In this document: in pieces, positions 1,701-21,704 of the stretch | How positions within the stretch are numbered: the stretch's first letter is position 1 | Layout: each line of letters begins with the position of its first letter | Source of the DNA: a virus | Length of the DNA stretch: 41,276 bases | Virus genome (UHGV): UHGV-0389628 | Reading direction: 5' to 3' (one strand) | The notes under the pieces: generated by a model | Told to the model about the DNA's origin: nothing | Database searches by the model: none | The model's input: only the letters and a program-made list of their open reading frames with translations | Position numbers and translations under genes: made by a program

Positions 1701-2921
1701 CTAACCGTTTTCGGCTACGCTTTTAGACGAGGTTGTTTTTCTTAATGTTGGATCCATATCGATTGGATATAGGTCTCCGGAAATATGGTAATCATCCATA
1801 CCGGTTTTATTTATTGGCTGCAAGTCCTCAAAGCGGCGAACATCATTGGCAGAATATGCTCCACCTCGGCGCATAATCTGGTAAAACTGCCCTCTGGCCT
1901 GTGTATCAGCTCTTAGCAAACTTGCGATATTAAACTTGTATCGATAACCCTTAGCTTTTTCAGCTCTCGATAGTGTTTTCTTATTTAGTTCCGCTTCATA
2001 TTGATTAACGGTCGGTACTAGATTGTATGTCAAAAACTCCATATTGAGCTGTTCCTGAGAGGAGTAACTTGACTGGTTATTCCCGATGAAATGTTCCGGC
2101 ACGTTGTAGACCATCGCGATTCTGGAGCGAGATATTTTATCAGTATCTAAAAGCTTGCTGTCTACCAGCTCTCGTTGTAAACGTTCGATTTCTACACCGT
2201 TTTCTTCCACAAGTAGTCCACCGTTTTGTCGATAAAAATCAGCAATGTTTTTAACTGTAGCTTTTTTAGCTTCTTCATCCATATTGCTAGCAAACTTAAC
2301 TTTTAGCCCTTCATTACTTCCTTTAAGCTGACTTAAAGAGATTTTTCGGACTTCTCGATCATATCCGAGGGTATTCGTTAATACTTTTGTGGGGTCTGCA
2401 CCTTCCAAGCCGCCAAACCTCGGTTGTTTAAAGTGGAGCATTTCCATGTAATGTACATAGATAACTTGCTTGTAACTGCCTTTGTCAGTCGCAGTTACTT
2501 GGTAGTAAAGCTCCCCGCTATCCATATCAATCACTGGATGGCAAGCACCAGGTTTTACTAACGCCATATCTGCTACTTCTCCATTGATATTTCGGAAAAT
2601 CTGCACATACGCATTCCCTTGGTAGTTTCTCAAAACTTCCACGTCCCGGAAAAAATCAAACTTTGTAAAATATCGAGGGCCTTCGCTCAACAAGTTGTAT
2701 GCAGGACAGTCGTCCGGTTGGCCAAACTCCACATCTATCATTTTGAGAGGGAGAGACGCAAAAACGTTCGATACACGGCTAATTACGGAAAAAATCCCTT
2801 CTGATATTTCATCTTTTCCGACTAAATACGGTATCAATCCCGGGTCATTCAAAAAATACTCTTGTTTGCTCGCTTTCGGCTTCGCTCGGCCAAAAGAACG
2901 CAAACGATCTAAAATACTCAT
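1701..2921 (-). CDS. Portal protein (HK97-family)
   Basis: 406 aa, immediately downstream of terminase large subunit and upstream of protease; portal-like composition. Confidence 0.85.
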   Translation of the reverse strand: MSILDRLRSFGRAKPKASKQEYFLNDPGLIPYLVGKDEISEGIFSVISRVSNVFASLPLKMIDVEFGQPDDCPAYNLLSEGPRYFTKFDFFRDVEVLRNYQGNAYVQIFRNINGEVADMALVKPGACHPVIDMDSGELYYQVTATDKGSYKQVIYVHYMEMLHFKQPRFGGLEGADPTKVLTNTLGYDREVRKISLSQLKGSNEGLKVKFASNMDEEAKKATVKNIADFYRQNGGLLVEENGVEIERLQRELVDSKLLDTDKISRSRIAMVYNVPEHFIGNNQSSYSSQEQLNMEFLTYNLVPTVNQYEAELNKKTLSRAEKAKGYRYKFNIASLLRADTQARGQFYQIMRRGGAYSANDVRRFEDLQPINKTGMDDYHISGDLYPIDMDPTLRKTTSSKSVAENG

Positions 2922-2936
2922 TCCTCCACACCTTTC

Positions 2937-4745
2937 TTACATATTCATTAAATCGGAAATCGAGTAATAGGTTACTTTCCCGGTTCCGACAGGATTAACC
3001 AACATATTCAACACTTCGGCGTGGCTGTTCAAACTTGCTGCAAAACCATCTATTTTTCTACTCTTGGACTGCTTAGACGGCATCCAGTTTGAGTTGCGAT
3101 CCATCACCAGCTTGACGTTGGATAGATACCATCGGTAAAGCTTGGAATTGTTGAAAATCACCTTACCGTCCAATAGCATTTCCTTGAAGTTTTGCATTGG
3201 CCCGCCTAATGATAGAAACCCTTGCCGAATCTCGTTGGTTTCAAATCCTGCATTTTCTAGTTCTTTATTTAATCGTAGTGCCTTGGCCTTGTCATAATTG
3301 ATTTTTACAATGTCATAGATTTTCGAATTTTCTACAAACCAATTTAAGACGTATTCATAATTGACGTAATCACCAGGAATAATCGTTAGATCTCCCACCT
3401 TCTCCCACGCTTTGATACGCTCTTGATTGTTATCTCGATCAAATCTAGCTTGTGGGATCCATGTGTGTTGCAAAATGAATACCTCGCCTGTTTCAAGCGG
3501 AAATTCTAAAACGGCTGCGGTAAAGTCTTCCGTTTCGGACAAGTCAAAACCACCGACACACTTCTTACCTTTGAGCGTTTCAATATCGATGGTTTTATTG
3601 TTTCGTTTAATGGTAGGCATATCGACAAATGACAGCTCATCGATATCGGAAAACAAGTTAAATTGCTTGGTAATCCAGTCAGCATATTCTTTTGGATCTT
3701 TTTTATCCTTAACATAGTCATCTAGCATGCCAACAAAATTCATTAGACAAATATTCGGATTGGCTTTGATCCATAATCTTGGGTCATCAGCCTCTTCCGC
3801 ACTGTCAAGTTTTGCCAGATAATAAAAAGTCCGTTCATCGATGTCATCTTCCAAATGTTCCAAACAGTCCACACCTTGCTCAAAATAAGACATCAACGGA
3901 CCATCTAATACATATCCAGCAGTTGTGATATAAACTATCAGAGGCTGTTTTCTGGTTCCTCTTGATTTCTTGATAACGTTGATCAGCTTGTAATTCGTAA
4001 ACTCGTGGATCTCGTCAAAAATACCAAAATGAGTGTTTAGCCCATCCAATTTCCGGCTATCTGAGGCGCGTGGTTCCATTTTAGAAAAGGCGGGAGCATA
4101 ATTAATACTTGATCGTTTAGGCTTACCAAATTTCTTAAAGAGCGCCGGCGATTGTTTGACCATTTCTGCGGCCTTATCAAACAACAAGCTTGCTTGATCA
4201 CGAGCATTTGCCAATACGTAAACGTTGGCGCCTTGTTCATCATCATAAGCGACCATGTATGTGGAAAGGCCCGAGATAAGACTTGTCTTCCCGTTTTTAC
4301 GTCCAACAAAAATAAGAGCCTCGCGGAAGCGACGCTCTCCTGTATCACGATGTACCCATCCGTACATGGATCCAATTATGAAATGCTGCCAAGGTTGCAA
4401 AACAAACGAACCAAAGTCGCCTTCAGTTGGTTTACATTTTTTTTCGATATATCTAATAGGCCGGTGACCTTTTTCTTCGTCAAAGATCCAAGGAAAATCA
4501 TCTGTTCCTTGGCGTTGTAAATCACGCATATGCCTTTTAGCAGCTTGAATATTTTCTTTGCTGGCTGGTATGCTTCCATCGATTAATCGTTCCGCATACC
4601 AAGTAGTTAACAATTCCGGATATGGACATTTTAAAAAGCCACCCCAAGAAGCTTGCTCCTCAAGATAGCTTTGCCAATAGTCCACACGTTCTGTGTAGGA
4701 CATATCCAAAATATTAGAAGTCGTCATCGTCATCACCACCATCAT
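2937..4745 (-). CDS. terL: Terminase large subunit (start ambiguous among several ATGs at 4745..4718)
   Basis: 602 aa with an ATPase-like core (VYVLANARDQAS; DEIHEF Walker B-like) and C-terminal nuclease-like region. Its 5' end overlaps the terS stop, typical packaging-gene coupling. Confidence 0.9.
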   Translation of the reverse strand: MMVVMTMTTSNILDMSYTERVDYWQSYLEEQASWGGFLKCPYPELLTTWYAERLIDGSIPASKENIQAAKRHMRDLQRQGTDDFPWIFDEEKGHRPIRYIEKKCKPTEGDFGSFVLQPWQHFIIGSMYGWVHRDTGERRFREALIFVGRKNGKTSLISGLSTYMVAYDDEQGANVYVLANARDQASLLFDKAAEMVKQSPALFKKFGKPKRSSINYAPAFSKMEPRASDSRKLDGLNTHFGIFDEIHEFTNYKLINVIKKSRGTRKQPLIVYITTAGYVLDGPLMSYFEQGVDCLEHLEDDIDERTFYYLAKLDSAEEADDPRLWIKANPNICLMNFVGMLDDYVKDKKDPKEYADWITKQFNLFSDIDELSFVDMPTIKRNNKTIDIETLKGKKCVGGFDLSETEDFTAAVLEFPLETGEVFILQHTWIPQARFDRDNNQERIKAWEKVGDLTIIPGDYVNYEYVLNWFVENSKIYDIVKINYDKAKALRLNKELENAGFETNEIRQGFLSLGGPMQNFKEMLLDGKVIFNNSKLYRWYLSNVKLVMDRNSNWMPSKQSKSRKIDGFAASLNSHAEVLNMLVNPVGTGKVTYYSISDLMNM

Positions 4746-5235
4746 CAGCCATCTTAATAGCTAACTTAGCTCTGGCTGCTGGTGATAGTCCTAAATCAGC
4801 GCCAAAAGAACGGAGATTCCGAGACGCTGTATCCATCTGCCGAGAGAGCGGATTACCAATTAATTCATTAGGTTCATTAAACGGCTCACCTCTCGCCTCT
4901 GCCTCCTTTTTCGCAAGCGCATAGTTCAACTTGTACTCTCGTTGTAGTTTTCGAAGCTGTTTTTCTAAAGAAACGTATTGCGAATACCAATTGGAGTAGA
5001 GAGCCATTGTATGGACATCCGGATTACTGATTAAATCCACAGACAGCAATTCATCAGCGATAAACTCAAAGGTATCCTTTCCTAGCGAATCTAGCCATAA
5101 CGGCGGTTTGATTTTGTCAGTAGCCATTTTTAATTTGTCTTCTGCGGCCGCTCGCTTGCGGAGTTCTTCGGTATTCTTCTTGTTTGGGTTTCCATTTAAT
5201 AATTGTAACTTTGCACTCTTCGCTGGTTGCGGCAT
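4714..5235 (-). CDS. terS: Terminase small subunit (P27-like); likely start MPQPAKSAK with RBS GAAGGTGA
   Basis: KLQLLNGNPNKK N-terminus typical of the P27 terS family, acidic DDGGDDDDDF tail, directly upstream of terL. Confidence 0.7.
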   Translation of the reverse strand: MPQPAKSAKLQLLNGNPNKKNTEELRKRAAAEDKLKMATDKIKPPLWLDSLGKDTFEFIADELLSVDLISNPDVHTMALYSNWYSQYVSLEKQLRKLQREYKLNYALAKKEAEARGEPFNEPNELIGNPLSRQMDTASRNLRSFGADLGLSPAARAKLAIKMADDGGDDDDDF

Positions 5236-5336
5236 AATATCACCTTCTTTCAAAAGATAGATTGAAATCGTTATCACAATCCTTATAATTAAGTTATCGG
5301 CAGTGCTGTGCCGAAATTTTTTAGGGAGGGATTCCT

Positions 5337-5501
5337 ATGGGAGAACTTTATAAACCCGGCGAAGACAATAAACCAAAAGGAACCTATAAAGAAGTGGGAC
5401 CTCGTGGTGGAAATGTCCAAGGCGGACGAGAAGTAAAAATTGATCCAGGCGACCGATTACCTCCTACTTCTCAAAAAGGAAACAAATGGACTAAGAAATA
5501 G
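5337..5501 (+). CDS. YjzC-like small protein (54 aa) MGELYKPGEDNKPKGTYKEVGPRGGNVQGGREVKIDPGDRLPPTSQKGNKWTKK
   Basis: Perfect RBS AGGGAGGG 6 nt upstream and an intrinsic terminator immediately after. Missed by the ≥60-aa ORF track. Lies on the opposite strand to all neighbours; resemblance to the Bacillus YjzC small-protein family is from memory. Confidence 0.6.
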   Translation: MGELYKPGEDNKPKGTYKEVGPRGGNVQGGREVKIDPGDRLPPTSQKGNKWTKK

Positions 5502-5511
5502 CTTCGTCCAA

Positions 5512-5538
5512 AGCCGGCTTAAATTGGTCGGCTTTTTC
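5512..5538 (+). terminator. Intrinsic terminator after YjzC-like gene
   Basis: Stem agccggc/gtcggct (one G-U pair), 8-nt loop, then TTTTT. Confidence 0.5.
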
Positions 5539-5658
5539 CTTTTTCTCAAAAAAAACTTGAAAAGCGGTCTTTTTACGAAAGAAGGACAGCACCGTTCTTC
5601 TCAAGCCTTACTCTTTAATCTTTTAGAGTAGGGGGGCTACCTTCATTTCGCTGCAAAC

Positions 5659-5976
5659 TTATCTTTCAGGAGTTGAATACATTTTAACGATATGTGATTT
5701 AGGTTTTGGTTTCTTCTTCCCGCCTGATCTCTCTGGATGCTCTCTGTTGTGACAAGCTACACAGATACATTCAAGGTTATCTACGGACCAGAACAGTGAC
5801 AGGTCTTCCCTCGCCTCGACTATGTGATGGATGATCGTGCCCCTTGTGTTCCGCCCTCGACGCTTGCACTCTTGGCACATGCCGAAGTCCCTAGCTATTA
5901 CTACTTGCCTTAGGTCTCGCCATCGTTTGGTCTTGTATAGTTTGTCTATCTCGTCTCTAGGTCTAGCTTCTTTCAT
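5659..5976 (-). CDS. HNH endonuclease (terminase-associated)
   Basis: HHIVEAREDLSLFWSVDNLECICVACHNREH HNH/zinc-finger motif. Sits just upstream of terS, as in cos-type HK97-like phages. Confidence 0.85.
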   Translation of the reverse strand: MKEARPRDEIDKLYKTKRWRDLRQVVIARDFGMCQECKRRGRNTRGTIIHHIVEAREDLSLFWSVDNLECICVACHNREHPERSGGKKKPKPKSHIVKMYSTPER

Positions 5977-7184: not shown

Positions 7185-7207
7185 AAAAGACCACTCGATG
7201 AGTGATC
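7185..7207 (-). terminator. Intrinsic terminator after His/Ser-rich gene (gaucacuc-auc-gaguggUc + U-run)
   Basis: 8-bp stem with a U-run on the minus strand; nearly identical to the hairpin at 7619..7642. Confidence 0.6.
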
Positions 7208-7208
7208 T

Positions 7209-7601
7209 TTACTTAACTAATTCATCAACGTATTTTTTAATTTTTTTCTGATCTGATTTGTTTAATTTTTTGATTTCTTTCTTTATATGACTCACATCAT
7301 TCTTCTCTTTGCTGTTTCTTGTGCTCCACCAAAAATGCCAAAATAAATGCGAGCTACTTGAACTGCTCTTTACACTAGAACTTTTGCTGCTAGGTTTACT
7401 TGTTTTTGGACTAGTCGACTTAGCGCCACTACTTTTCGACGTACTACTGCTTTTACCAGAAGTATGCGATGATGAGTGAGAACTAACATGGGAACTTGTA
7501 TGAGACGATGTATGTGGACTAACGTGTGGTGAAACATGCACAGAAGTATGGGCAAATCCAATTAGAATTGCTGGCAATGTAATAATAGTTAACAGTTTCA
7601 T
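7209..7601 (-). CDS. Secreted His/Ser-rich repeat protein (130 aa; signal peptide MKLLTIITLPAILIGFA, repeats SPHVSPHTSSHTSSHVSSHSSSH, S/K-rich tract, WHFWW, K-rich C-terminus)
   Basis: Start at 7601 with a perfect AAGGAGG RBS. Flanked by twin terminators. Composition suggests a secreted, possibly metal-binding protein. Confidence 0.7.
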   Translation of the reverse strand: MKLLTIITLPAILIGFAHTSVHVSPHVSPHTSSHTSSHVSSHSSSHTSGKSSSTSKSSGAKSTSPKTSKPSSKSSSVKSSSSSSHLFWHFWWSTRNSKEKNDVSHIKKEIKKLNKSDQKKIKKYVDELVK

Positions 7602-7618
7602 GATTTCCTCCTTAACGT

Positions 7619-7642
7619 AAAAAGACCACTCAAAGAGTGATC
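7619..7642 (-). terminator. Intrinsic terminator/attenuator between the GC-rich leader and the RBS of the His/Ser-rich gene
   Basis: Stem gaucacuc-uuu-gaguggUc then UUUUU, ending 11 nt before the AAGGAGG RBS, leaving no room for a promoter between terminator and RBS. Confidence 0.6.
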
Positions 7643-7649
7643 TAATATG

Positions 7650-7827
7650 TAATAGCAACCTACACACAGGCGGTTATCCTGTCCTCCCTAGGGCTCGCAC
7701 CACACGAGTTCATACCCCCCTCGGTTGCTTAAAGTCACTGGAGTGGAATCGCACCACACACGAGAACTTACCAGGCTCTCACGAGGCTACTCGCCATTTA
7801 CCGTTGCGTCTTCTACTTCCGCCACAG
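7650..7827 (-). ncRNA. Candidate structured leader / ncRNA, about 180 nt and GC-rich (riboswitch- or attenuator-like)
   Basis: A local GC spike in an AT-rich genome with no ORF on either strand. Internal repeats of cucgugug(ug)gugcga, a GGCGAGUAGCC motif, a cccuaggg palindrome, and a 5'-ggcgg…ccgcc-3' closing helix. An intrinsic terminator follows directly, then the RBS of the His-rich gene. Confidence 0.35.
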
Positions 7828-7840
7828 CGATAAAATTTTA

Positions 7841-7868
7841 TTGTGAAAATAAATACTAAGCGTATAAT
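7841..7868 (+). promoter_or_regulatory. Sigma-A-type promoter for the DUF1883-like gene (TTGTGA-16 nt-TATAAT)
   Basis: Consensus-like -35 and -10, followed by the conserved 50-nt leader. Confidence 0.5.
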
Positions 7869-7920
7869 TTTATTTATCAGCGAGTGGTCTGCTGAAATAG
7901 CCGATAAGGAGGCGAAAAAC

Positions 7921-8160
7921 ATGGTGCAGGTTCCTTATGCTGAATCCAGCGGTTCATTATCTGTAAGAGTAGAACTTCAACATACCGCAGATGTATTTTT
8001 GGTCGATTCTACGAACTACAGAAAAATGAACTCTGGTCAAAAATTTAAGTACTACGGCGGACATTACACTAGAACACCGGTAAATATCACAGTCAGTGGT
8101 CCTGGTAGATGGTATTTGATTGTTCGTGGTGGTGGGCAATACAAATATAGATTCTATTAA
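7921..8160 (+). CDS. DUF1883-like small protein (79 aa) …VFLVDSTNYRKMNSGQKFKYYGGHYTRTPVNITVSGPGRWYLIVRGGGQ
   Basis: AAGGAGG RBS 7 nt upstream. The motif pattern (LVDS.N…yyGG…tPV.itVp.sG.W) is recalled from the DUF1883 family. The track's 7843 start would include promoter and leader. Confidence 0.6.
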   Translation: MVQVPYAESSGSLSVRVELQHTADVFLVDSTNYRKMNSGQKFKYYGGHYTRTPVNITVSGPGRWYLIVRGGGQYKYRFY

Positions 8161-8348
8161 TCTTTAATTTGAGCTGGCATACCAATTGTCAGCTCTGTTA
8201 ATGTGGCATTTTTTTTCATATAATCTTCCGCTTTTGATACAGCATTTTGCAAATTAGAAATCGTCCAGCCTTTCTCAATTACAAAACTAATAACCGTTTC
8301 AATAAATTCTTTTTCTTCTGCTTCTAAAACAATTCTTTCCGTGTTCAT
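8157..8348 (-). CDS. Hypothetical small protein (63 aa)
   Basis: ORF lying between two plus-strand genes; weak RBS AAGAAAGGAA. Confidence 0.45.
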   Translation of the reverse strand: MNTERIVLEAEEKEFIETVISFVIEKGWTISNLQNAVSKAEDYMKKNATLTELTIGMPAQIKD

Positions 8349-8369
8349 TTTTTACATTCCTTTCTTTGG

Positions 8370-8425
8370 TATAATTTTCTTATCGGTAAGTGGTCTACTG
8401 AAATAGCTGATAAGGTGGTGAATCT
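8370..8425 (+). promoter_or_regulatory. Extended -10 promoter (TGgTATAAT) plus conserved leader with inverted repeat cttatcgg…ctgataag abutting the SD
   Basis: About 80% identical over about 45 nt to the leader at 7863..7920. Confidence 0.5.
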
Positions 8426-8671
8426 ATGAAAATTACTGCTGCTATCACTAAAGAGCAAGGCGTCACATTTACAGTTATTCTTGTTAAAACTGGTGTAATT
8501 TCTTCTAATAGAGAACAAGTTAGAACTAGCGCTCCAAGCAATTTCCCGCGACCTATTATTTTAGCTGAACAATCACATGGGAAAATGAAATATCATGGTA
8601 GAACAGATATCGTAAGATTCCTTTCTAATGTTCCTTATCAGGCTTTGCCGTGGAAGGACTATACTTTATAG
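8426..8671 (+). CDS. Hypothetical small protein (81 aa)
   Basis: RBS AAGGTGG; shares the conserved promoter and leader with the DUF1883-like gene. Confidence 0.55.
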   Translation: MKITAAITKEQGVTFTVILVKTGVISSNREQVRTSAPSNFPRPIILAEQSHGKMKYHGRTDIVRFLSNVPYQALPWKDYTL

Positions 8672-8798
8672 ATTCTGCTACTGGAACATTGATATCCCCT
8701 TCTGGTAAATCAATGTTCCAATTTGCTTTTGCAAAAAAACTTGAGTTCTCCCTTTCATCGTTAGATACAAGATTTGCTTTATCATATTTTGATTCCAT
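8627..8798 (-). CDS. Hypothetical small protein (57 aa; start MESKYDKANL, RBS GGAGGG)
   Basis: Strong RBS; its 3' end overlaps that of the convergent 8426..8671 gene by about 45 nt. Confidence 0.45.
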
Positions 8799-9023
8799 CA
8801 GCTTTCCCTCCAATACATAAATTAATAGACAACAACGGATGATAGATAATAAGAACAATTTAGAAGGAGTTGAAATTCACATCCTTATTCTTAATATTTC
8901 CGTTGCTGTCTATCGAAGCTTAATTGTGAAACAATAATAAAACGATGTTCCTTTTATTATTATTTTGTCTCAGACCTATCACTAATCTTTCGACACTACC
9001 ATAATATCACGTTAAAACACTCA

Positions 9024-9056
9024 AAAACCCTACACTATCCCTACAAAAACCCTACA
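9024..9056. repeat. Three tandem 11-bp direct repeats (aaaaccctaca / ctatccctaca / aaaaccctaca)
   Basis: One-helical-turn periodicity immediately downstream of arpU, at the head of the leftward late region. The related motif ctatcccta recurs at 11550-11572 in the origin region. Confidence 0.5.
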
Positions 9057-9059
9057 AAA

Positions 9060-9479
9060 TCAACGATACTGAACTAACACGCCTTTTTTGTATGCTTCAG
9101 CAAATTCGATCAATGCGATGGATTTCAGCTTCTCTACATTCTTCTCTCCGTATCCTCGTATCAATTGACCTATTTCATAATTAGAGTGCTTATTTACGTC
9201 ACAGAAGCTGTAGTAGAGTATCTGACGGCTAATCAGACTAAGAGCCATCAAAGCCGCTAGAATCGCATCTCTCTCCGCTTCTATATCCATCATCTGAATG
9301 ATCGCGTCTTCTGCCTTATTACCGTGCTTCGGTGCCTTCGGCATATCGGTTATGATAGGAGACTTAATATCTATCAAAGAGCGACCTGCCATCCGCTCCA
9401 AACGTCGAAAGTTCTTCAGCACATCTCTCGCATTACATCTTGTCTGTTTGAAATCTACCTCTCGTAACAATTTCATCAA
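9060..9479 (-). CDS. arpU: ArpU-family phage late transcriptional regulator
   Basis: 139 aa with a sigma-region-4-like C-terminus. The family was first described in Enterococcus hirae. Lies at the boundary of the replication and late modules. Confidence 0.75.
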   Translation of the reverse strand: MMKLLREVDFKQTRCNARDVLKNFRRLERMAGRSLIDIKSPIITDMPKAPKHGNKAEDAIIQMMDIEAERDAILAALMALSLISRQILYYSFCDVNKHSNYEIGQLIRGYGEKNVEKLKSIALIEFAEAYKKGVLVQYR

Positions 9480-9551
9480 GTCAAACCGCTCCTTTATGTG
9501 ATATAATAAACTTGTTGGGTTTATTACATCAGTCGGAGCGATCCGGCTTTT

Positions 9552-9863
9552 TTATTTGTCATTGATTAGTTCAATATCCACCAATCTCGCCACTGCTAAA
9601 TTCTCTTTGCTTTTCGCTGTCCATTTATCACATTCCATCGTGTTTTCAATACGAATGATCGCTGAGTGATTATAGACGTGTTCTACATATCCACGAAATG
9701 GATAAACGAACCCTTCTGCTTCGCAGCGAACCATGTCACCGACTTTGAATTTTGGTTTCTTACGTTTTTTAGGGTTCTTTGTCGGCATATCTAGCATTAA
9801 ACCGCCGATACCGTGGCTGCTAGCGTAAAATCCGTCTTTTAGTTTCATTCTTTTTCCTCCCAT
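9552..9863 (-). CDS. Small protein, DUF2187/YkvS-like (KVGDMVRCEAEGFVYPFRGYVEHVYNHSAIIRI)
   Basis: Motif resemblance from memory. Confidence 0.45.
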   Translation of the reverse strand: MGGKRMKLKDGFYASSHGIGGLMLDMPTKNPKKRKKPKFKVGDMVRCEAEGFVYPFRGYVEHVYNHSAIIRIENTMECDKWTAKSKENLAVARLVDIELINDK

Positions 9864-10054
9864 TTACGATCATCACTTAATATCGAAATTCCAAACTTAC
9901 GAATAGCATCACTTGCATCAGCAACATACTGGCTTGCCACTTTATATGTTTCTTCTGCTGAAATTCCATATTCTTTTTCAAACTTTGTCTTTAGTACATT
10001 CAGTTCCTGTTTTCTTAGTTTTGTTATTCTGCGGTGCCTGTTGTTCATTTTCAA
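9845..10054 (-). CDS. Hypothetical protein (69 aa)
   Basis: Compact ORF within the operon. Confidence 0.45.
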   Translation of the reverse strand: MKMNNRHRRITKLRKQELNVLKTKFEKEYGISAEETYKVASQYVADASDAIRKFGISILSDDRKWEEKE

Positions 10055-10285
10055 TCAACCCCCTAATCTGAAAGTGTTGTCTATACTTGATCGAAATTCT
10101 TTTAAGTGGTTCTCTACCACAGAATCAGTCACGTTAAAACGATCAATTAATACTGGAGCTGCCATATCTTTCAAATAACTTTGTCTGATGACTAATTCAG
10201 TACCATCAGGAAGTTCTATGTTAACCTCCCGACCATTGATAATTGCTTGAATGCCCGCTTCACTTAGTGGTATTTCGTATTTCAT
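10055..10285 (-). CDS. Hypothetical protein (76 aa)
   Basis: Compact ORF; its stop overlaps the mazG start. Confidence 0.45.
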   Translation of the reverse strand: MKYEIPLSEAGIQAIINGREVNIELPDGTELVIRQSYLKDMAAPVLIDRFNVTDSVVENHLKEFRSSIDNTFRLGG

Positions 10286-10593
10286 TTCACATCCTCCAAA
10301 TCACTCGACTTCACGAATACACCATCTACCATTTTCCCTGTGCGTCCTTTGATTTCGTTGTACGCCATTTCTAAACACTCTTGTATGTTTGTCCCTTTTT
10401 GCATGGAAAGGATAATCAGCGTGACGATTACGTCTCCTACGCTATCTTTAAATAGCTCATCATTACTTCTTGCCATCGCCGATGCTATTTCCCCGAATTC
10501 CTCAGCTACTTTCAAAAACTGTGCTTTTGGATCTGCTTGATCCAATCCCTTATCTTTAGCCCACTGCTCTACTTTTGTGATTAGTTCGTCCAT
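10282..10593 (-). CDS. mazG: MazG-like nucleoside triphosphate pyrophosphohydrolase
   Basis: EEFGEIA … GDVIVTLIIL is the MazG EExxE…D motif pair. Confidence 0.8.
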   Translation of the reverse strand: MDELITKVEQWAKDKGLDQADPKAQFLKVAEEFGEIASAMARSNDELFKDSVGDVIVTLIILSMQKGTNIQECLEMAYNEIKGRTGKMVDGVFVKSSDLEDVK

Positions 10594-10898
10594 TATTTCT
10601 CCTCCACATACCTAAACTGTCGTCCTTTTGAATCAATCCACAAGCTCCTAGCTCTATCCCAGATAATGTTTTTGCTTAATCCAGTGATTTCAGATAACTG
10701 TTCAGCAGTACCTGTTACTAGAATTCGATCACCATGCCAGATTGCAATTTTTCTCGGCGTTTTCCGTTTGGGTTTTTCAGTCCACATTGATTTACCGAGC
10801 TTTTGGACTTCTGCAACTATTTCTTTGTCTTCTTGCCAAGATTCTGACTTGGTTAATTCAGCAATTCTTTTCATTGCTACTTTCTTATCCACGATCAT
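10593..10898 (-). CDS. Hypothetical protein (101 aa)
   Basis: ATGA start/stop overlaps on both sides. Confidence 0.5.
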   Translation of the reverse strand: MIVDKKVAMKRIAELTKSESWQEDKEIVAEVQKLGKSMWTEKPKRKTPRKIAIWHGDRILVTGTAEQLSEITGLSKNIIWDRARSLWIDSKGRQFRYVEEK

Positions 10899-11056
10899 TC
10901 CTCCAATCTACGAATTTTCCTTCTTAAATTCTCTACATGCAAATCGATTGCCTTCCTCGCCGTTTCATTGACCATTACTGCCTTTGTCCGCTCCAGATCG
11001 TCAATCTCACGCTGAAGGCTTCGAATACGCATTTGAATCACTTCTTCTGTTGTCAT
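10898..11056 (-). CDS. Small coiled-coil protein (52 aa) MTTEEVIQMRIRSLQREIDDLERTKAVMVNETARKAIDLHVENLRRKIRRLEE
   Basis: Below the ORF-track threshold; ATGA overlaps with the VRR-NUC stop and the downstream gene start. Confidence 0.4.
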
Positions 11057-11370
11057 GATGATTCCTCCACAATTTTCAATGCTTCTTCCACTGATCGTGC
11101 AACACCATATAGTACAGGTTGCTTTTGCAAAAAATCACCAAACTTCACTTGGTCTGGTCTCAACTTTCCTTTTTCGTTCTTCACTTCAATGGCGAAAAAT
11201 TTTCCCTCTTTAGTCCATCCAAATAAATCTGGCCATCCTTTGGGCAATCCAGTATCGAACCATCTGCCATCAATCGTCTTCACTTTGCCCACATTGCCTC
11301 TATAAACAAAATGACCATATTTTGGTAATTCTCTTCGAATGGCATTTTGTATTTCAATTTCTGCTGTCAT
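11053..11370 (-). CDS. VRR-NUC domain nuclease
   Basis: GWPDLFGW…FFAIEVK PD-(D/E)xK signature. Confidence 0.85.
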   Translation of the reverse strand: MTAEIEIQNAIRRELPKYGHFVYRGNVGKVKTIDGRWFDTGLPKGWPDLFGWTKEGKFFAIEVKNEKGKLRPDQVKFGDFLQKQPVLYGVARSVEEALKIVEESS

Positions 11371-11384
11371 AAGCGCCTCCTTAA

Positions 11385-11690
11385 ATCCAGGGAGGGTTTA
11401 GAATAAATAGGGAGGGTTTAGAAACCGTGTATCCCTTGATACTCTAAGGATTGTTTAATTTTAGGGAGGGTTGGACAGTTTTTCTAGGTTGCTTCTGTAT
11501 TTTTATATATTTCCTTATTTTTATTATTTTATTTACTATATATATAAACTATCCCTACTATCCCTAATAGCTATATAATCCTTGTAGCTCTAAGGTTTAA
11601 GTTCAGGGAGGGTTTATCAAAAACTATCCCTAAACCCTCCCTAGACCATCCCTTTTTTATATTTGTGAAACTTTTTTGTTTCACAATCCC
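11385..11690. repeat. Putative replication origin: iterons plus AT-rich unwinding element plus hairpin
   Basis: agggagggttt occurs four times (11389, 11409, 11462, 11605) plus inverted taaaccctccct (11630). Tandem ctatcccta repeats at 11550-11572. About 50 nt of roughly 90% AT at 11500-11550. Inverted repeat ttgtgaaac-N7-gtttcacaa at 11662-11686. Located immediately past the 3' end (stop codon) of the primase gene. Confidence 0.6.
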
Positions 11691-14017
11691 GGAACTAATA
11701 CGTTAAATTCTCTAAACTCTTTTTTTAAATCAATCCCTATATAACTAATTTTCCCATTTGTTTTTTTCTTCTCAAACCTGTCCGCAGCTTTCTTACCAAA
11801 CTGGGTCTGACTGAATGGATGTTCATTCATATCTCTTGCCCATTTATCGTATGCTTTAAATAGATCCGTTGCCCCGATTGAATAACCAGGTCCTGTTTCG
11901 CAACATTCATCTATAAAAGCACCTATAATATCCATTTCTTTTCGATATTCCATTGTAGCTTTCTGAATATCAGCCGGTGGATTCAACCCTTCTCTTTGCC
12001 ACATCAAACATCCTTCTACTGCCCAATTGAATATTCCTGGCAATTCGCGCATCAATTTTTCTTTCAAATTCTTATCCACTTTATCTAACGGAATTTGTAC
12101 AGTGAAAGGAATTAATGGTAATCTTCGCCAAATACCATCATCATTTCCTCTGATGATTGGCTTATGATTAGTTGCAAGCCAAATCTTATATTTAGGTTTA
12201 TAGTCAAACATGTGGCCTCCTTTATAGGATGCTGACACTTTATCTCCACCAGTTAGTTGTTTGATTAAACCTTCATCCATTCTTACGCCTTCATTTGGCT
12301 CCGAGGACGTTACTAGACGTGCGCCATTTAATCGTGCAATATCTTCGTTATGACCGCTGCTACCACCTTGTTTAACCATCAAGCTCGATGCCTGCATTCC
12401 CATGGCATAACTTCCCATTATTTCAGAAATGATATCTAAGAAAACAGACTTACCATTTCTTCCATTACCGAAAAGGATGAACATGACTTGTTCTCTTATC
12501 GATGCACTCATAGAATACCCAACGGCTTTTTGAATATAGCGAATCAATTCAGTGTTATTGTCAAATATCTGTTCCAAAAACAGCTTCCAACGTGGACAAT
12601 CACTTTTATCCGTATACTCAGCGTTAGAAATTCGAGTGAACATTTTAGAAATATCGTGTTCGTATAAAATGCCATTAGAAAGATCTAAATAACCGTTTTG
12701 AGCGTTGAACAGCATATCATCACTATCAAATTCTTCAGGAAGTATCGCTACTTGGTGCTTCAACTCACGTGTCATAGCTTCTTTTCCAGCATTGTTTCTA
12801 GACCTTCTTAAATGTTTCTCTTTTGCTTCAATATAGGCTTTTTCTTCATCTTCAGTCGCATCTTTAGGTATCGAAACAGGTTCGTTTTTAAATATCTCGA
12901 TAGTCTGATCTACCCATTTTCGAACGGCACCGATATTGTCTTGTTCCCAGTTTTTACCGTTATAAAAATACCAGCATTTATTTACGTAACTGTATTTTGT
13001 AAAGGATCCAAACAAATCAAGATATCTTTCTGCATTCCCTGTATCATCATAGCTATAAAACTTAGTCGGTTTATTATCGTCCACAGTGATACCTGGGATG
13101 GAAAGAAAATAATCATCAGCTGTTTTTTTGCCAGTATAATGATTGGTATTCTCAGATATGGCTTTATTTAAAAGCCCTATTCCATAGGTTGTCTTTCCGC
13201 GTTTCTGATCATATTTATCTCGAAACAACGAAGACATTCGGAATATTTCATCCATCTTTTGAAAATCTCCAGCAGTCCAAAAAGCTAAATCATTTGCAAA
13301 TGCTAAATCTGCTTCAGATTGGCTATCATATATTTTTTCCCATCCTCCATCCATGAACAATCTAAAACGATTACCTGTAGAAGAATTCACCGCTGTTTGT
13401 ATAATCTCGTTGACAGATAAGTCATTTCCATCTGACCAATTACTTTTAGAAAAATCTTGTTTTATTACTGTTTCATTTTCTAAATATCGCTTGTATAAGA
13501 AATTCATTTGGATTTCAGGTATCTCATTAATTTCTTCATTATTACCAAAGAAGTTACCTGTAATAGCAAAGAACCTACCTTCGGTATACATTTCGACATT
13601 CCCTTTTCTGCGTCTTTCTCCAGGGATTGCTGCTTTACCTATAATATGGATTCCCTTGCCACTCATTGATATTTCTGAATATGTTTTTGTAGAATTCATA
13701 AAAACATAAACTAAGTTATTTTCTACATCGCCTTGAAGATACCTTTCTAAATCATCGCCTATATCATCTAAATCAATACCTATATAAGGTGGTTTAAAAT
13801 AAAAAGCTAGGCCATCTGCATTAAAAGTTGAAACAGCTGAGAGAGCGGTCTTGAAATCAGACCACTTGCTCTCATTTGTACTGCTCCCTAATTCTCCAGT
13901 AAACGGATCATAAGGTTTCTTACTCCATTTCCCTCGTTGTTCGTTCCATGAGCGTTTATAAATCCCCCACTGATTTAACTCACGCAACTCTAAGGGAATA
14001 CGCTCGTAATTATTCAT
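11681..14017 (-). CDS. Bifunctional primase-polymerase / P4-family (D5-like) primase-helicase
   Basis: 778 aa with a prim-pol-like N-terminus and a C-terminal Walker A GNGRNGKS typical of P4 alpha/D5. Confidence 0.85.
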   Translation of the reverse strand: MNNYERIPLELRELNQWGIYKRSWNEQRGKWSKKPYDPFTGELGSSTNESKWSDFKTALSAVSTFNADGLAFYFKPPYIGIDLDDIGDDLERYLQGDVENNLVYVFMNSTKTYSEISMSGKGIHIIGKAAIPGERRRKGNVEMYTEGRFFAITGNFFGNNEEINEIPEIQMNFLYKRYLENETVIKQDFSKSNWSDGNDLSVNEIIQTAVNSSTGNRFRLFMDGGWEKIYDSQSEADLAFANDLAFWTAGDFQKMDEIFRMSSLFRDKYDQKRGKTTYGIGLLNKAISENTNHYTGKKTADDYFLSIPGITVDDNKPTKFYSYDDTGNAERYLDLFGSFTKYSYVNKCWYFYNGKNWEQDNIGAVRKWVDQTIEIFKNEPVSIPKDATEDEEKAYIEAKEKHLRRSRNNAGKEAMTRELKHQVAILPEEFDSDDMLFNAQNGYLDLSNGILYEHDISKMFTRISNAEYTDKSDCPRWKLFLEQIFDNNTELIRYIQKAVGYSMSASIREQVMFILFGNGRNGKSVFLDIISEIMGSYAMGMQASSLMVKQGGSSGHNEDIARLNGARLVTSSEPNEGVRMDEGLIKQLTGGDKVSASYKGGHMFDYKPKYKIWLATNHKPIIRGNDDGIWRRLPLIPFTVQIPLDKVDKNLKEKLMRELPGIFNWAVEGCLMWQREGLNPPADIQKATMEYRKEMDIIGAFIDECCETGPGYSIGATDLFKAYDKWARDMNEHPFSQTQFGKKAADRFEKKKTNGKISYIGIDLKKEFREFNVLVPGL

Positions 14018-14523
14018 TAGAATGGAAGATCATTATCTGAAATATCAAATGCTGGTGAGGAATTTACAGATTTTTCAGCGTTGTTTTTCTTCCATTGATG
14101 TTGGAGTTCTGGAAACTTAGTGGTTTCGAATTTTTTAATATTTGTATTGTCATACGTTTTCCCGTTGTACTCCGATTGTTCGTTCTTTACTTTTACTTTC
14201 GCTGGTCTCATAGCAAAATCTTCAAGAAAATTTTCGAATGATTGATATTCCTTTCCATCAGGAAGGCCAAATGATTTCGCTAGTGACATAATCATTCCAC
14301 GATTATATTTGCCAGTTTCTTTACTTTTCCAAACTCTATGGAAAAGATGACTGTTTTGTCGTGGTTGTTTAATATCATTTCTGATGACCATATCAAAATT
14401 AATAAACTCTGTGCCGCCTTTTGAGGCATCTTCCGTAACGTTGAAAATAACTACCTCATAATCTCCGTCTGGTACTGCTCCAAAATCTTGTGCTTCATTG
14501 TAATCTACTTTAAATGCTGTCAT
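14017..14523 (-). CDS. DUF669-like phage protein (putative ssDNA-binding/annealing accessory)
   Basis: 168 aa. Sits in the Gp157–AAA_24–helicase–DUF669–primase cassette recalled from Firmicutes phages. Confidence 0.5.
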   Translation of the reverse strand: MTAFKVDYNEAQDFGAVPDGDYEVVIFNVTEDASKGGTEFINFDMVIRNDIKQPRQNSHLFHRVWKSKETGKYNRGMIMSLAKSFGLPDGKEYQSFENFLEDFAMRPAKVKVKNEQSEYNGKTYDNTNIKKFETTKFPELQHQWKKNNAEKSVNSSPAFDISDNDLPF

Positions 14524-14540
14524 AATTAATTACCTCTTCC

Positions 14541-16776: not shown

Positions 16777-16796
16777 TACTCATACCTCCACTTGCA

Positions 16797-17526: not shown

Positions 17527-17578
17527 TTACGGTTCATTCCTTTCTGTGGTAAAATATAAAAAGATAGTTTATTCCCCT

Positions 17579-17617
17579 GACACGATCATGCTTGCCGGCG
17601 TTCGTGTCTTTTTTTAT
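17579..17617 (+). terminator. Plus-strand intrinsic terminator with no annotated plus-strand gene upstream
   Basis: Stem gacacga/tcgtgtc, 16-nt loop, then TTTTTTTAT. The minus orientation lacks a U-run. Confidence 0.5.
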
Positions 17618-17703
17618 TTTTCAAAATCACTAATTCTTGAATTATTTCTTCTCTCCTTTTGATATAATTTGAGTAAAAAGGTGTTAAAGCTAAAAGACTC
17701 ATT

Positions 17704-18120: not shown

Positions 18121-18123
18121 ACT

Positions 18124-18297: not shown

Positions 18298-18309
18298 CCG
18301 TTTACCTCC

Positions 18310-19883: not shown

Positions 19884-21704
19884 TTGTTAGAGAAAGAAAA
19901 TATAAAAAGAAACAAAGGAAAGAGCAAAATAATGAAAAAGAAAAAAGGTACACAATTATCCATTGATTCACCAAACTGGTTATTAATTATTATAGTTTTA
20001 TGTTTTGCAGCTTTTATAATGGTATCACCCCAAGTATATCTTCATAGTGTTATATTAGGGAATGATATTATGTTTCATTTTAATAGGTTTTATGAAACTT
20101 ATATGCAGATAAAAACCGGTAATTTTAATTTCTTTCAATCCCTGTATTCTTTTCAGAGTTCTGGCAGAATTATTACTGCTTTTTATGGCGCAGATTTCGC
20201 TTATTTGCAAGGGCTACTTTTAATAATCTTAAAATCATGGTTTAAATATCAACTTGTCTCCTCTTTCAGTTGCTTTTTTATAGCTGGCGCTTCGATGTTT
20301 TGGCTAACTTATAAGTGTAAAGTACGAACTAACATAGGATTAATCATTGCTTTGTTGTACATGTCTTCATCAGCAGTTTCGTATTATCCTATTGCTCAAG
20401 CTTTTACTGGTTGGGGTGCTGCTTTAATGCCGCTTCTTTTTGTTCCAGCAATTGAAGCATTAAAAAATAAAGAAAGACCTATTCGTCCATTGCAACTTGC
20501 AATCCCTGTAACTTTATTACTGTCTACTCATTTACTTTCATTAGTAATTGGAATATTAGCTATTTTACCTTTTTATGTTATTGCTTTTATTAATACAAAA
20601 AATAAACTGAACATGATTTTTCGCTTAGTAGAATCTATAGGGTTAACCATGCTATTTTCTGCTAATACAATAATTGGATTTATAGATGTCTATCTAACTA
20701 ATAAAATATTATCCCCTTCTCCGATAAGTCAAATGTTGAGCCAAAGTATGAGTTTCTCGTTGGAAGGAAACTCTTGGGGAAATTATGGTCTAGTATTTAC
20801 TGCAATTTTCTTTGCTGTAATAATATATTTCTTTTTAAATTGGGCTAAAACTAGTCTTACTTCAAAAGTAATCGTTATTGTTGGAGCCTTTTTTATGTTA
20901 CTTTCTTCAAAATTGTTACCTTGGAACTCTATCCCTCATATGTTTAAATTTGTTTCATTTTTCCAATTTCCACAAAGATTCTCAGTCATTGCTTTTGTTT
21001 TACTTTTATTATCATTTGCTCTTATATTGCAAGAATCAAAACTACTTAAAGATGTTGACAAAAAGTACTATATATTAACTTTACTGTGTGCTCTATTTTC
21101 AATATTTAATGTATATAACCTTATGTATGACCAATCTTGGCACTGGAATACAAATGATCCCACCGCTGCAGGAAACAATAAAAGTTCTATGGTTGAAAAA
21201 GATCCTCAAAAGTTAAGGGAAGCCTTTTATAATAAAGATTTAAATATTGCATTGAAAGCAATCCAAAAAGGAACTCCTGACTATTTGCCTGTACAAAAAA
21301 ATTTAGAATCATCAGATGTATTAAAACAAAACCCTTATGAATTGTATACAAACCAAATAATAAATAACAATGTACATTTTAATAAGACTGTAACTAGTGA
21401 TTCTAAACTTCGTTTAACTTGGACTAATAATTCAAATGAGGAATCCGATATTCAATTGCCTATAATAATTTATAATCATAGTACAGTAACTTTGAATGGT
21501 AAAAAATTAACTCCAAACGAAATTAAAACTACTCAAATTGGAGCTGCTATTGTTGCATCGAGTCCAGGAAAAAATACTTTAGTTATCGGTTATAAGCCAT
21601 TTGTTTTATTTAAAATAGCCTTTCCAATAAAAATATTGTCTATACTTTCAACTATCATTTATGTCATCTACAAGTATAAAAAAACAAAAATAATCGAAAT
21701 ATAA
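19884..21704 (+). CDS. Polytopic membrane protein, YfhO-like GT-C glycosyltransferase (putative cell-wall teichoic acid glycosylation / lysogenic conversion)
   Basis: 606 aa with about 12 predicted TM helices, then a soluble C-terminal domain with a final TM. Has a GNDIMFHFNRF motif in the first loop. Extremely AT-rich relative to the rest of the genome. Family assignment is from memory. Confidence 0.5.
   Translation: MLEKENIKRNKGKSKIMKKKKGTQLSIDSPNWLLIIIVLCFAAFIMVSPQVYLHSVILGNDIMFHFNRFYETYMQIKTGNFNFFQSLYSFQSSGRIITAFYGADFAYLQGLLLIILKSWFKYQLVSSFSCFFIAGASMFWLTYKCKVRTNIGLIIALLYMSSSAVSYYPIAQAFTGWGAALMPLLFVPAIEALKNKERPIRPLQLAIPVTLLLSTHLLSLVIGILAILPFYVIAFINTKNKLNMIFRLVESIGLTMLFSANTIIGFIDVYLTNKILSPSPISQMLSQSMSFSLEGNSWGNYGLVFTAIFFAVIIYFFLNWAKTSLTSKVIVIVGAFFMLLSSKLLPWNSIPHMFKFVSFFQFPQRFSVIAFVLLLLSFALILQESKLLKDVDKKYYILTLLCALFSIFNVYNLMYDQSWHWNTNDPTAAGNNKSSMVEKDPQKLREAFYNKDLNIALKAIQKGTPDYLPVQKNLESSDVLKQNPYELYTNQIINNNVHFNKTVTSDSKLRLTWTNNSNEESDIQLPIIIYNHSTVTLNGKKLTPNEIKTTQIGAAIVASSPGKNTLVIGYKPFVLFKIAFPIKILSILSTIIYVIYKYKKTKIIEI

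Follow-up and report, generated by a model that had tools for sequence, protein, structure and literature searches.

The closest described relatives of the element considered here are the PeSL cassettes of T4-like phages, in which a sigma-70-type promoter, a stem-loop and a Shine-Dalgarno (SD) sequence are repeated directly upstream of small ORFans in variable regions of the genome, and in which similarity ends at the motif edges, consistent with recombinational shuffling of the cargo (Arbiol et al. 2010, PMC2839356; Comeau et al. 2014, PMC4122927). We have analysed the viral genome UHGV-0389628 (41,276 nucleotides (nt); this whole stretch is called the window), in which a module of similar build, consisting of a promoter, a short hairpin and an SD sequence, stands directly upstream of single small genes. 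It was suggested in a first-pass annotation that four small genes in alternating orientation at 7841-8860 form one candidate accessory system. In our best reading the four-gene interpretation is replaced by a new and widespread family of promoter-hairpin cassettes, a gene pair coding for a DUF1883 protein and a helical-hairpin protein of 63 amino acids (aa), and an adjacent candidate RNA class. We consider it reasonably probable that the cassettes are PeSL-like portable expression units with a hairpin at the 5' terminus of the transcript, accompanied by the DUF1883/63-aa two-gene module.

Two other kinds of known element resemble the cassettes. Morons, in the sense of Hendrix and Juhala, consist of a promoter, a gene and a terminator placed between conserved phage genes and are expressed from the prophage. 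Like morons, the cassettes are single extra genes with their own predicted promoter, present or absent between similar phages; they occupy hotspots at the arpU-terS junction and in the early region near cI and cro, in an orientation that would permit expression independent of the lytic programme. We know of no morons that share a common leader; the present cassettes, with at least 39 cargo families, all use one promoter-hairpin-SD module, and downstream of the cargo a terminator-like hairpin was detected in only about 37% of them (44 of 120, against 40 of 381 control windows, or 10%). Hairpins at the 5' terminus are also known as stabilisers of messenger RNA (mRNA), as in the aprE and ermC leaders of B. 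subtilis and the ompA leader of E. coli. As in those leaders, the stem-loop of the module lies a few nt from the predicted 5' end, with a strong SD sequence behind it, and the covariation of its stem and its tolerance of other loops would fit a structure-dependent role. The aprE, ermC and ompA leaders are gene-specific and belong to no mobile module, however, and the conservation of the loop and of a GAAAUA flank seen here would not be expected of them.

Three cassettes were found in the window, two of them neighbours, with the following features.

7841..7868, plus strand: promoter of cassette 1 (class A), with -35 TTGTGA at 7841-7846, a 16-nt spacer and -10 TATAAT at 7863-7868; 10 of 12 in a consensus scan.
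7874..7899, plus strand: leader element 1, made of UUAU, the hairpin U7877-A7895 (stem CAGCG/UGCUG, loop AGUGGUC at 7883-7889) and AAAUA.
7906-7912, plus strand: SD sequence of cassette 1, AAGGAGG.
7921..8160, plus strand: cargo 1, the DUF1883 protein of 79 aa (Pfam PF08980).
8157..8348, minus (lytic) strand: gene of the 63-aa helical-hairpin protein, overlapping the DUF1883 gene by 4 nt.
8171..8195, plus strand: hairpin GAGCUGGCA-UACCAAU-UGUCAGCUC, just past the DUF1883 stop codon and within the 3' end of the 63-aa open reading frame (ORF).
8367..8375, plus strand: promoter of cassette 2 (class B), an extended -10, TGgTATAAT.
8380..8405, plus strand: leader element 2, made of UUAU, the hairpin U8383-A8401 (stem CGGUA/UACUG, loop AGUGGUC at 8389-8395) and AAAUA.
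8412-8418, plus strand: SD sequence of cassette 2, AAGGTGG.
8426..8671, plus strand: cargo 2, a protein of 81 aa (phrog_23950), its gene overlapping the 57-aa ORF by 47 nt.
8625..8798, minus (lytic) strand: 57-aa ORF (phrog_34578) with its ATG at 8798, downstream of arpU.
5284..5540, plus strand: third cassette, between terS and HNH and antisense to them.

Much of what the first-pass annotation had read from the letters was confirmed in the sequence, namely the two plus-strand and two minus-strand small ORFs with their orientations, SD sequences, promoters and paired leaders. The convergent overlap of the last pair is real (47 nt with the stop codons included, where about 45 had been given), and the two leader copies, described as near 80% identical, agree at 34 of 41 positions (83%). 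The remainder of the stretch from 1 to 18.7 kb had been placed wholly on the minus strand, which is wrong because of the third cassette. Its -10, TATAAT, spans 5284-5289 and its hairpin, a variant with the loop GUGCUG, spans 5297-5314; these are followed by a YjzC-like gene of 54 aa at 5337..5501 and a terminator at 5513-5540. YjzC (PF14168) is a recurrent cargo family. In all three cassettes a predicted promoter lies directly upstream of a single gene (7841-7868, 8367-8375 and 5284-5289). Judged by promoter geometry, the transcripts would start at A7876 in cassette 1 and at A8382 in cassette 2. The 29-nt class A block ATTGTGAAAATAAATACTAAGCGTATAAT was found ahead of many different cargo genes, and the block at 8341-8375, within which the ribosome-binding site (RBS) and start codon of the divergent 63-aa gene also lie, was also found ahead of antirepressor genes in two other loci (L044 and L003; retrieved loci carry L numbers). 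The window contains exactly two copies of a 27-nt leader core, where 100 shuffles gave an expectation of 0, and leader 2 differs from leader 1 by one compensatory change (C-G to U-A), one change of A-U to G·U and one of G·U to A-U. A clear terminator follows the YjzC-like gene and none follows the 81-aa gene. The hairpin past the DUF1883 gene lacks a canonical U-tract and may be a weak terminator; its equivalent in L007 was scored as terminator-like.

In its general form the module reads TATAAT, 8-9 nt, the hairpin U-CRGYR-AGUGGUC-YRCUG-A with AGUGGUC as its loop, AAUA, and then a strong SD sequence. The exact leader core was found ahead of four unrelated ORFs in 10 IMG/VR viral contigs, and scans of viral contigs gave at least 120 matches to CRGYR-AGTGGTC-YRCTGAAATA and again at least 120 when the loop and two stem pairs were left unspecified. 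The counts given below come from loci among the listed scan matches, the retrieved loci holding 127 distinct instances. Among GenBank phages the module is carried by Enterococcus phiFL1-3, 4995_1, EH-TP1, EFP1 and AE4_2, as well as by two records named 'Listeria phage LM', both of which share further DNA with Enterococcus phages; it is also present in eight phage-sized 'plasmid' records, seven from E. faecium and one from Lactococcus lactis. The leader is a genuine shared cis-element, as had been proposed from the window, and its spread is far wider than the window alone could show. Searches of Rfam gave no match to the leader, either at the gathering score over the whole window or at E <= 10 over 7550-9100, with 12 related loci also searched, and no prior description turned up when the literature was searched for the motif strings and for leader motifs of Enterococcus prophages. 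A scan of species-representative genomes with a pattern of the window's sub-type (..GAAATAGNNGAT) gave only chance matches in unrelated taxa and, being limited to that sub-type, permits no inference on the core motif in those genomes.

Comparison of phiFL1A, 4995_1 and EH-TP1 identified the inner hairpin as the conserved part of the leader. An outer TTATC..GATAA stem, stressed in the consensus of the first-pass annotation, was tried as a conserved structure and rejected, since it is present in a subset of instances only, and it characterises a sub-family. The two stems raise the thought of a very small riboswitch, in which a ligand would choose between the inner hairpin and an outer UUAUCAG/CUGAUAA stem. 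Both window copies and about a third of the instances can indeed form these mutually exclusive helices near the SD sequence. We nevertheless hold a riboswitch to be extremely improbable, as the outer stem is lacking in most instances, Rfam gave no match at E <= 10, the cargo genes have no common metabolic theme, and the conserved block of about 26 nt is smaller than any aptamer known to us.

When 121 distinct instances were clustered by their cargo, at least 39 unrelated clusters were obtained, with ORFs of 38-225 aa. A few fall into Pfam families (DUF1508/YegP, YjzC, DUF2513, DUF2321, KTSC, DUF3892 and DUF1883) and most have no Pfam family; no PADLOC match was found among the cargo families. 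As a separate observation, the commonest cargo family, phrog_1090 (16 instances; for example L043 2569-2847 on the plus strand and gp05 of phiFL1A), gave weak PADLOC matches to Cas2 (E 5e-4 to 1e-3) and may have a Cas2-like fold.

Over the 127 instances conservation is highest, at 1.7-2.0 bits per position, in the stretch UUAU-hairpin-AAAUA (-4 to +22, counted from the hairpin), and drops sharply upstream of the -10 and just past AAAUA. The hairpin starts at a fixed 8-9 nt past TATAAT in four otherwise different promoter classes, and with this fixed spacing a conserved A two nt before the stem (7-8 nt past the -10) would be the expected start site. Three stem pairs have changed on both sides. 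At the pairs for which the search pattern left room for mismatches, none was seen: pair 4 was C-G 79, U-A 17, U·G 3 and C·A 0, and pair 5 was G-C 59, A-U 38, G·U 2 and A·C 0. Pair 2 was A-U 93 and G·U 6. Among 43 distinct hairpin variants 98.8% of cells are paired, against 92.2% in shuffles, none of 500 shuffles reaching the observed value, and in slid registers only 26-37% of cells are paired. Every asymmetric state reads as G·U on the plus strand and would read as A·C on the other, a bias that speaks for an RNA hairpin of the plus strand rather than for a DNA palindrome or a minus-strand structure.

The same states bear on the proposal that the element works at the DNA level only, either as a palindromic repressor operator overlapping +1 or as a pure recombination joint. 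The TCAGCG-N7-CGCTGA palindrome does overlap the predicted start site, and conservation ends abruptly at the module edges, where cargo and flanking ORFs are mosaic. A duplex-DNA site would show no strand bias, however, and the asymmetric states, at least five of them independent, are without exception G·T on the plus strand and never A·C; in addition, double compensatory changes keep the pairing, and a search of 1.75 Mb of loci revealed none of the inversion junctions predicted between the leader and a terminator repeat. A role confined to DNA is quite unlikely.

The strand bias also speaks to sense-antisense control. It could be that the hairpin loop pairs with the loop of a lytic read-through transcript to give a duplex, and that decay by RNase III or transcriptional interference then silences the cargo in lytic growth, or that the lytic transcript is modulated. 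The cassettes are almost always antisense to lytic operons, their convergent 3' overlaps often leave no room for a terminator, and a 7-nt loop is typical of kissing-loop antisense systems such as CopA/CopT, RNAI/RNAII and par of pAD1. Yet G·U leaves the plus hairpin intact and gives A·C mismatches in its complement, the loop is without a YUNR motif, full-length complementarity would exist regardless of any hairpin, and the fixed distance from the -10 would go unexplained, so that such control seems to us distinctly improbable. A hairpin with the complementary loop GACCACU (L053, L059) was considered as an antisense partner and rejected: read on the other strand it is a terminator with the same AGUGGUC loop.

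A further question is whether the hairpin is recognised by its structure or by its sequence. The stem covaries and alternative loops exist, yet in the main lineage the loop and 3' flank are almost invariant, the loop being AGUGGUC in 67 of the 73 instances of a scan in which it was left free. It was therefore considered that the hairpin might be the operator of a sequence-specific trans factor, an RNA-binding protein or small RNA (sRNA) of host or phage, which would bring all cassette genes under a common post-transcriptional control, as one regulon whose state might change, for instance, from lysogeny to lytic growth. Apart from the loop count, this would be in keeping with the 1.8-2.0 bits of the loop and GAAAUA flank against the 1.1-1.4 bits of the covarying stem positions, and with the octamer GAGUGGUC being also the invariant 3' half of a conserved lytic-strand terminator. 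On the other hand, minority lineages, including the third cassette of the window, have quite different loops (GUGCUG, GUGACAG, CUGCAA and UGAA) and are alike in their distance from the -10, in UUAU, in the stem base CRG..CYG and in the GAAAU flank; in clostridial-type leaders neither loop nor stem is constant; no candidate factor was found; and loop conservation could reflect recent recombinational spread. An operator role is possible, though on balance unlikely.

The clostridial-type leaders were seen about 20-60 nt upstream of DUF1883 genes in L231, L247, L253-L255, L259, L261 and L262. They consist of a -10, about 7 nt, CAG, a GC-rich covarying hairpin of 4-5 base pairs (bp), YGAGUA-CA and AAGAAGGGAG, and may be distant relatives of the Enterococcus hairpin.

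The placement of the cassettes has to be seen against the layout of the phage, a temperate phage of Enterococcus whose positions 9200-20000 are 96% identical to Enterococcus phage 4995_2. The replication genes are on the minus strand, as are the rest of the lytic genes, and the main landmarks are the following.

2937-4745, minus strand: terL.
4714-5277, minus strand: terS.
5659-5976, minus strand: HNH.
9060..9479, minus strand: ArpU-family late transcriptional regulator (TIGR01637, 131 bits against a cutoff of 43; phrog_248).
19034, plus strand: cI-like repressor.
19363, plus strand: ImmA.
22336, plus strand: integrase.

Since cI, ImmA and the integrase are all on the plus strand, plus is the lysogeny orientation, and 7921..8160 and 8426..8671 are therefore antisense islands within the lytic transcription unit. 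Both neighbouring cassettes are inserted between arpU and the packaging genes, with the ArpU-family gene as the upstream boundary of an accessory-gene hotspot; the suggestion that this site is a moron hotspot has held up, as otherwise similar phages differ in their cargo there. Antisense placement is general: both neighbours are on the opposite strand in 81 of the 127 instances, and a median of 92% of the neighbouring coding sequence is opposite-strand. The cassettes share the orientation of cI and integrase in the window and also in phiFL1A, 4995_1 and L215, and in the last three they lie in the early region. Identical leaders stand ahead of differing cargo in related phages. Similarity ends at the module edges and flanking minus-strand ORFs are chimeric, as might be seen if modules were exchanged by recombination at the motif. 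In L215, three consecutive cassettes (2480-4650) alternate with minus-strand ORFs that are chimeric, with N-termini 59% identical and C-termini different, which suggests that the module boundaries fall inside these ORFs.

We propose that the cassettes are portable units of expression. The region at 7841-8860 holds two of the window's three single-gene cassettes, on the lysogeny strand and antisense to the lytic unit, and each presents a near-consensus sigma-A promoter, a hairpin one nt past the predicted start (5'-A-UCAGCG-AGUGGUC-CGCUGA-AAUA) and then a strong SD sequence. The 5'-terminal hairpin would protect and insulate the 5' end of the mRNA, and any ORF placed behind the module might then be strongly expressed whether or not the lytic programme runs, for instance in the prophage state. 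Over its 26-60 bp the conserved DNA could also serve as homologous-recombination joints by which cargo is swapped, as PeSLs may do in T4-like phages. The likeness to PeSLs stops short of membership, which fails because PeSL stem-loops are terminators of upstream co-oriented transcription at variable positions, in units co-oriented with their neighbours, whereas the Enterococcus hairpin is a fixed leader at +2 to +19, is followed by AAAUA and no U-tract, has a nearly invariant loop, and heads cassettes antisense to their neighbours. The phages also differ, those with the present module being temperate siphoviruses of a Gram-positive host.

Several observations weigh against portable cassettes with a stabilising 5' hairpin. 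Single-sequence folding is unremarkable (z-scores +0.2 to -2.8), and the hairpin of window copy 2 is weak, with a competing outer stem. The main-lineage loop AGUGGUC and the 3' flank GAAAUA are conserved above the stem, the -35 and the SD sequence; such invariance is more than a purely structural stabiliser needs and may point to a sequence-specific partner. That the hairpin is 5'-terminal is a prediction from promoter geometry, and a terminator is seen in only about a third of the cassettes. Many module instances are closely related, so the counts are not counts of independent events, and the search patterns fixed part of the stem. The DUF1883/63-aa pair, moreover, is not obligate: members of the 63-aa family occur without DUF1883 in six loci (L001, L002, L009, L137, L222 and L223), and DUF1883 occurs without the partner in 7 of 37 viral loci and in Peribacillus.

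The module is a sequence tag for the accessory genes of Enterococcus temperate phages which recovers dozens of small 'dark matter' genes, and the genes so tagged are likely expressed from prophages in a major hospital pathogen. Searching with the tag is a form of guilt by association, like the discovery of anti-CRISPR loci. The PeSL idea of mobile cassettes that shuffle ORFans is extended from T4-like lytic phages to temperate phages of Gram-positive bacteria with another anatomy, that of a transcribed 5' hairpin and antisense insertion. A promoter, hairpin and SD sequence within about 60 nt are also a candidate natural expression part for Enterococcus.

Like the leader, the cargo of cassette 1 turned out to belong to a wider pattern. 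The assignment of the first ORF to DUF1883 in the first-pass annotation was borne out by Pfam (PF08980, 52.3 bits against a cutoff of 26, E 5.5e-14, residues 15-71), and the other three ORFs have no Pfam family. PDB entry 2b1y (Atu1913) matches residues 13-72 of the protein with a phmmer E of 5.5e-4, in a comparison of sequences only. DUF1883 is common as the C-terminal partner of prokaryotic TIR domains. We found 151 homologue clusters of the window protein at 65-86% identity in Bacilli, Clostridia and Negativicutes, every listed homologue being assigned to PF08980. The 63-aa protein, in contrast to its neighbour, has no Pfam match, and no GenBank phage gave a tblastn match to it at a database-wide E <= 0.01; its family was found only through targeted comparison of syntenic neighbours and a profile built on them. 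In Paenibacillus phage Pd_22F a lone, reverse-oriented DUF1883 gene (73% identical protein) overlaps by 4 nt a convergent 70-aa ORF whose product is 30% identical to the 63-aa protein, and the same layout is present in phages and prophages of Mammaliicoccus and in Paenibacillus prophages. The partner profile matches the ORF adjoining DUF1883 in Listeria seeligeri, C. botulinum, Pectinatus, B. toyonensis and Muricomes (E 1e-10 to 4e-15), and all other neighbours of DUF1883 gave E >= 0.013. DUF1883 and the partner are adjacent in eight of nine Firmicute genera, Peribacillus being the one without a partner.

An unbiased set of 38 viral loci, fetched from IMG/VR with a DUF1883 alignment, gave the same picture. 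Exactly one match to the partner profile was obtained in 30 of the 37 usable loci, always in the ORF lying tail-to-tail with DUF1883, with a spacing that in most loci ranges from a 4-nt overlap to a 35-nt gap. The partner is convergent in all 30 of these, and co-directional only in B. toyonensis (L230). It diverges much faster than DUF1883, with 25-47% identity where DUF1883 has 55-87%, at lengths of 51-70 aa. In the AlphaFold2 (AF2) model the 63-aa protein forms two helices, with a predicted local distance difference test (pLDDT) score above 90 for residues 10-40 and a conserved G-x-T-I-S motif at the turn; a structure search with this model gave no PDB match at all. Taken together, these results support a functional module of two proteins. 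Because they converge, the two genes fall under opposite transcription programmes, which suggests an effector and antagonist or self-immunity, and we think the DUF1883 and 63-aa proteins are probably an effector and its partner or antagonist.

The only stand-alone DUF1883 protein studied so far is MrpB of C. difficile, which requires the adjacent small protein MrpA, and pulls it down; the pair perturbs MinD-dependent cell division (bioRxiv 10.1101/2025.08.20.671228). When compared by gene layout, both systems place a stand-alone DUF1883 protein of about 80 aa beside a small uncharacterised partner, but mrpAB is co-transcribed and chromosomal, and the phage pair is on opposite strands, tail-to-tail and phage-borne. 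A DUF1883 protein with a helical hairpin of 50-70 aa across Bacilli, Clostridia and Negativicutes thus offers a testable partner for the barely studied DUF1883 and a link to the cell-division phenotype of MrpAB.

The two remaining genes behave differently. The 81-aa protein belongs to phrog_23950 (PHROG E 1.1e-47), has 20 homologues down to 42% identity, and shows codon-position differences of 5/5/24 and 19/12/40, indicating purifying selection. Its AF2 model (pLDDT 86) has a beta-beta-alpha-beta-beta-alpha-beta topology, for which Foldseek found no meaningful match in PDB (best E 0.56). Distant homologues, at 42-48% identity, have neither the leader nor a convergent partner. We regard the 81-aa gene as a real, independent conserved protein gene. 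The 57-aa ORF matches phrog_34578 over positions 1-57 of 57 (PHROG E 2.5e-36), and its codon-position differences (12/7/7, 10/13/12 and 11/6/4) have no third-position bias; in L215 only its C-terminal 44 aa are conserved, beside an 81-aa homologue. It appears to be a lytic-strand ORF without clear protein-level selection. By codon position, selection on the protein is thus seen in the 81-aa gene and in DUF1883 (differences 1/0/8, purifying selection) and not in the 57-aa ORF, while the 63-aa gene has too few differences within Enterococcus for this test. Of the structure prediction that the first-pass annotation had called for, AF2 and Foldseek were run on the 81-aa and 63-aa proteins, giving models and no meaningful PDB match.

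These gene histories bear on the proposal that the four interleaved genes are one toxin-antitoxin (TA), abortive-infection (Abi) or anti-defence system, co-regulated through the leader. The layout does alternate and overlap, and convergent pairs recur, as does an alternating order in L215. In 19 other retrieved loci carrying any of the four genes, however, DUF1883 with the 63-aa gene was found in 6, the 63-aa gene alone in 5 (three of them with Zn-ribbon cargo in the same slot), the 81-aa gene with the 57-aa ORF in 4, the 57-aa ORF alone in 3, and all four together in a single locus, L004. The slot past DUF1883/63-aa holds other cargo in L005 and L008, and the 81-aa gene lies beside arpU without DUF1883 in L083, L104, L116 and L160; each of the two plus-strand genes is thus also found without the other, against the link that had been drawn between them. 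With distant 81-aa homologues lacking leader and partner, a 57-aa ORF lacking a coding signature, no matches to TA or defence families, and one leader serving at least 39 unrelated cargo families, a four-gene system is very improbable, and it is the co-occurrence pattern that largely refutes it. What survives of the accessory system is the DUF1883/63-aa pair, which recurs as neighbours and is conserved across Firmicute phages; a conserved block of four genes was not found.

Known TA systems also fit poorly. The par locus of Enterococcus faecalis pAD1 (Fst/RNA I-RNA II) is a type I TA system. It resembles the present locus in coming from Enterococcus, in having transcripts that converge and share their 3' ends, and in the repeats near the 5' ends; of the layout of the type I family, only the 47-nt convergent overlap is matched in the window. 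The window repeats, however, are direct and on the same strand, so that the two leader RNAs are not mutually complementary, and the partners are not obligate. No Fst-like small hydrophobic toxin was recognised, in a test that did not include transmembrane prediction, DUF1883 being a 79-aa Pfam family member with a solved relative and the 81-aa model being mixed alpha/beta. As to type II TA and defence systems, the genes are convergent and not operonic, and no significant match was obtained in PADLOC, Pfam or NCBIfam, which leaves the suggested TA, Abi or defence identity without a counterpart in these collections.

Back-to-back with the class A promoter lies a second structured element, read from the lytic strand.

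7619..7829, minus (lytic) strand: GC-rich, tRNA-like structured RNA, with an intrinsic terminator at 7643-7623.

The RNA begins with a 7-bp acceptor-like stem (GUCACUG/CAGUGAC), which covaries, and a D-arm-like segment; in its T-arm, whose loop is UUCGAUU, four stem pairs covary, the anticodon arm is replaced by a variable insert, and a second variable domain and a conserved terminator follow, the latter abutting the RBS of the next lytic gene. In Enterococcus-phage loci 68 distinct versions of 192-675 nt were found, some of them in tandem. ARAGORN made no tRNA or tmRNA call for it, and Rfam gave no match at E <= 10, the 12 related loci included. A leader cassette lies 215-1550 nt from 79 of the 80 distinct terminators, and the candidate minus-strand -10 (CACAAT) is the complement of the cassette -35. 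It looks like an undescribed tRNA-like leader, or an sRNA, of the late operon; RNAs of this kind, tRNA-like and terminated ahead of the late genes, form a class that lacks annotation and deserves a study of its own. The GC-rich segment was also considered as a cos site, which is unlikely because its stems covary like RNA; the usual position of cos, which we take to be between HNH and terS, would be 5540-5659 here. The conserved intrinsic terminator AGATCACTC-NNN-GAGTGGTCT-T5 is present in two copies, 7623-7643 and 7185-7210, both on the minus strand, which flank a Ser-rich secreted ORF at 7209..7604. The octamer shared with the leader, in the 3' half of this terminator, corresponds to the hairpin loop and its closing G. 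An inverton acting through the 8-bp inverted repeat GACCACTC/GAGTGGTC of terminator and leader was tried and rejected, no flipped junctions being present in the 1.75 Mb of loci.

The position of this RNA allows a more ambitious combination, which we consider doubtful as a whole. The hairpin would be the common operator of a dedicated trans regulator, making dozens of accessory genes one phage-wide regulon. The class A cassettes would be one half of a bistable switch, in which the -35 TTGTGA complements the -10 CACAAT of an ArpU-dependent late promoter for the tRNA-like leader RNA and terminator, and because of this complementarity RNA polymerase would transcribe the cargo of the lysogeny strand or else the late operon. 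DUF1883, together with the helical hairpin as its fast-evolving partner, would make up a new effector-antagonist pair and would target a conserved host function, for example Min-dependent cell division.

A few further features of the phage and of related loci were noted. A long imperfect inverted repeat at 8828-8915 (ATAGACAACAACGGA...TCCGTTGCTGTCTAT) lies between arpU and the 57-aa ORF and gave only a weak, sub-threshold match to rli48 in Rfam (E 6.3). A 606-aa ORF at 19884..21704 on the plus strand, between ImmA and the integrase in the lysogeny module, has no match in Pfam, PADLOC or NCBIfam and is a candidate for a prophage-expressed accessory or defence gene. In L056, a match to Rfam Ref1C (Enterococcus sRNA 1C, 93.7 bits) was found at 4626-4744 on the minus strand, inside the phage locus and about 1.3 kb from a cassette. 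The only Rfam family in the window is the DUF3800-I RNA (RF02969, 80 bits), at 25445-25564 on the minus strand, which lies directly downstream of a gene for a DUF3800 protein (Pfam PF12686; 25624..26316, minus strand) that adjoins the endolysin.

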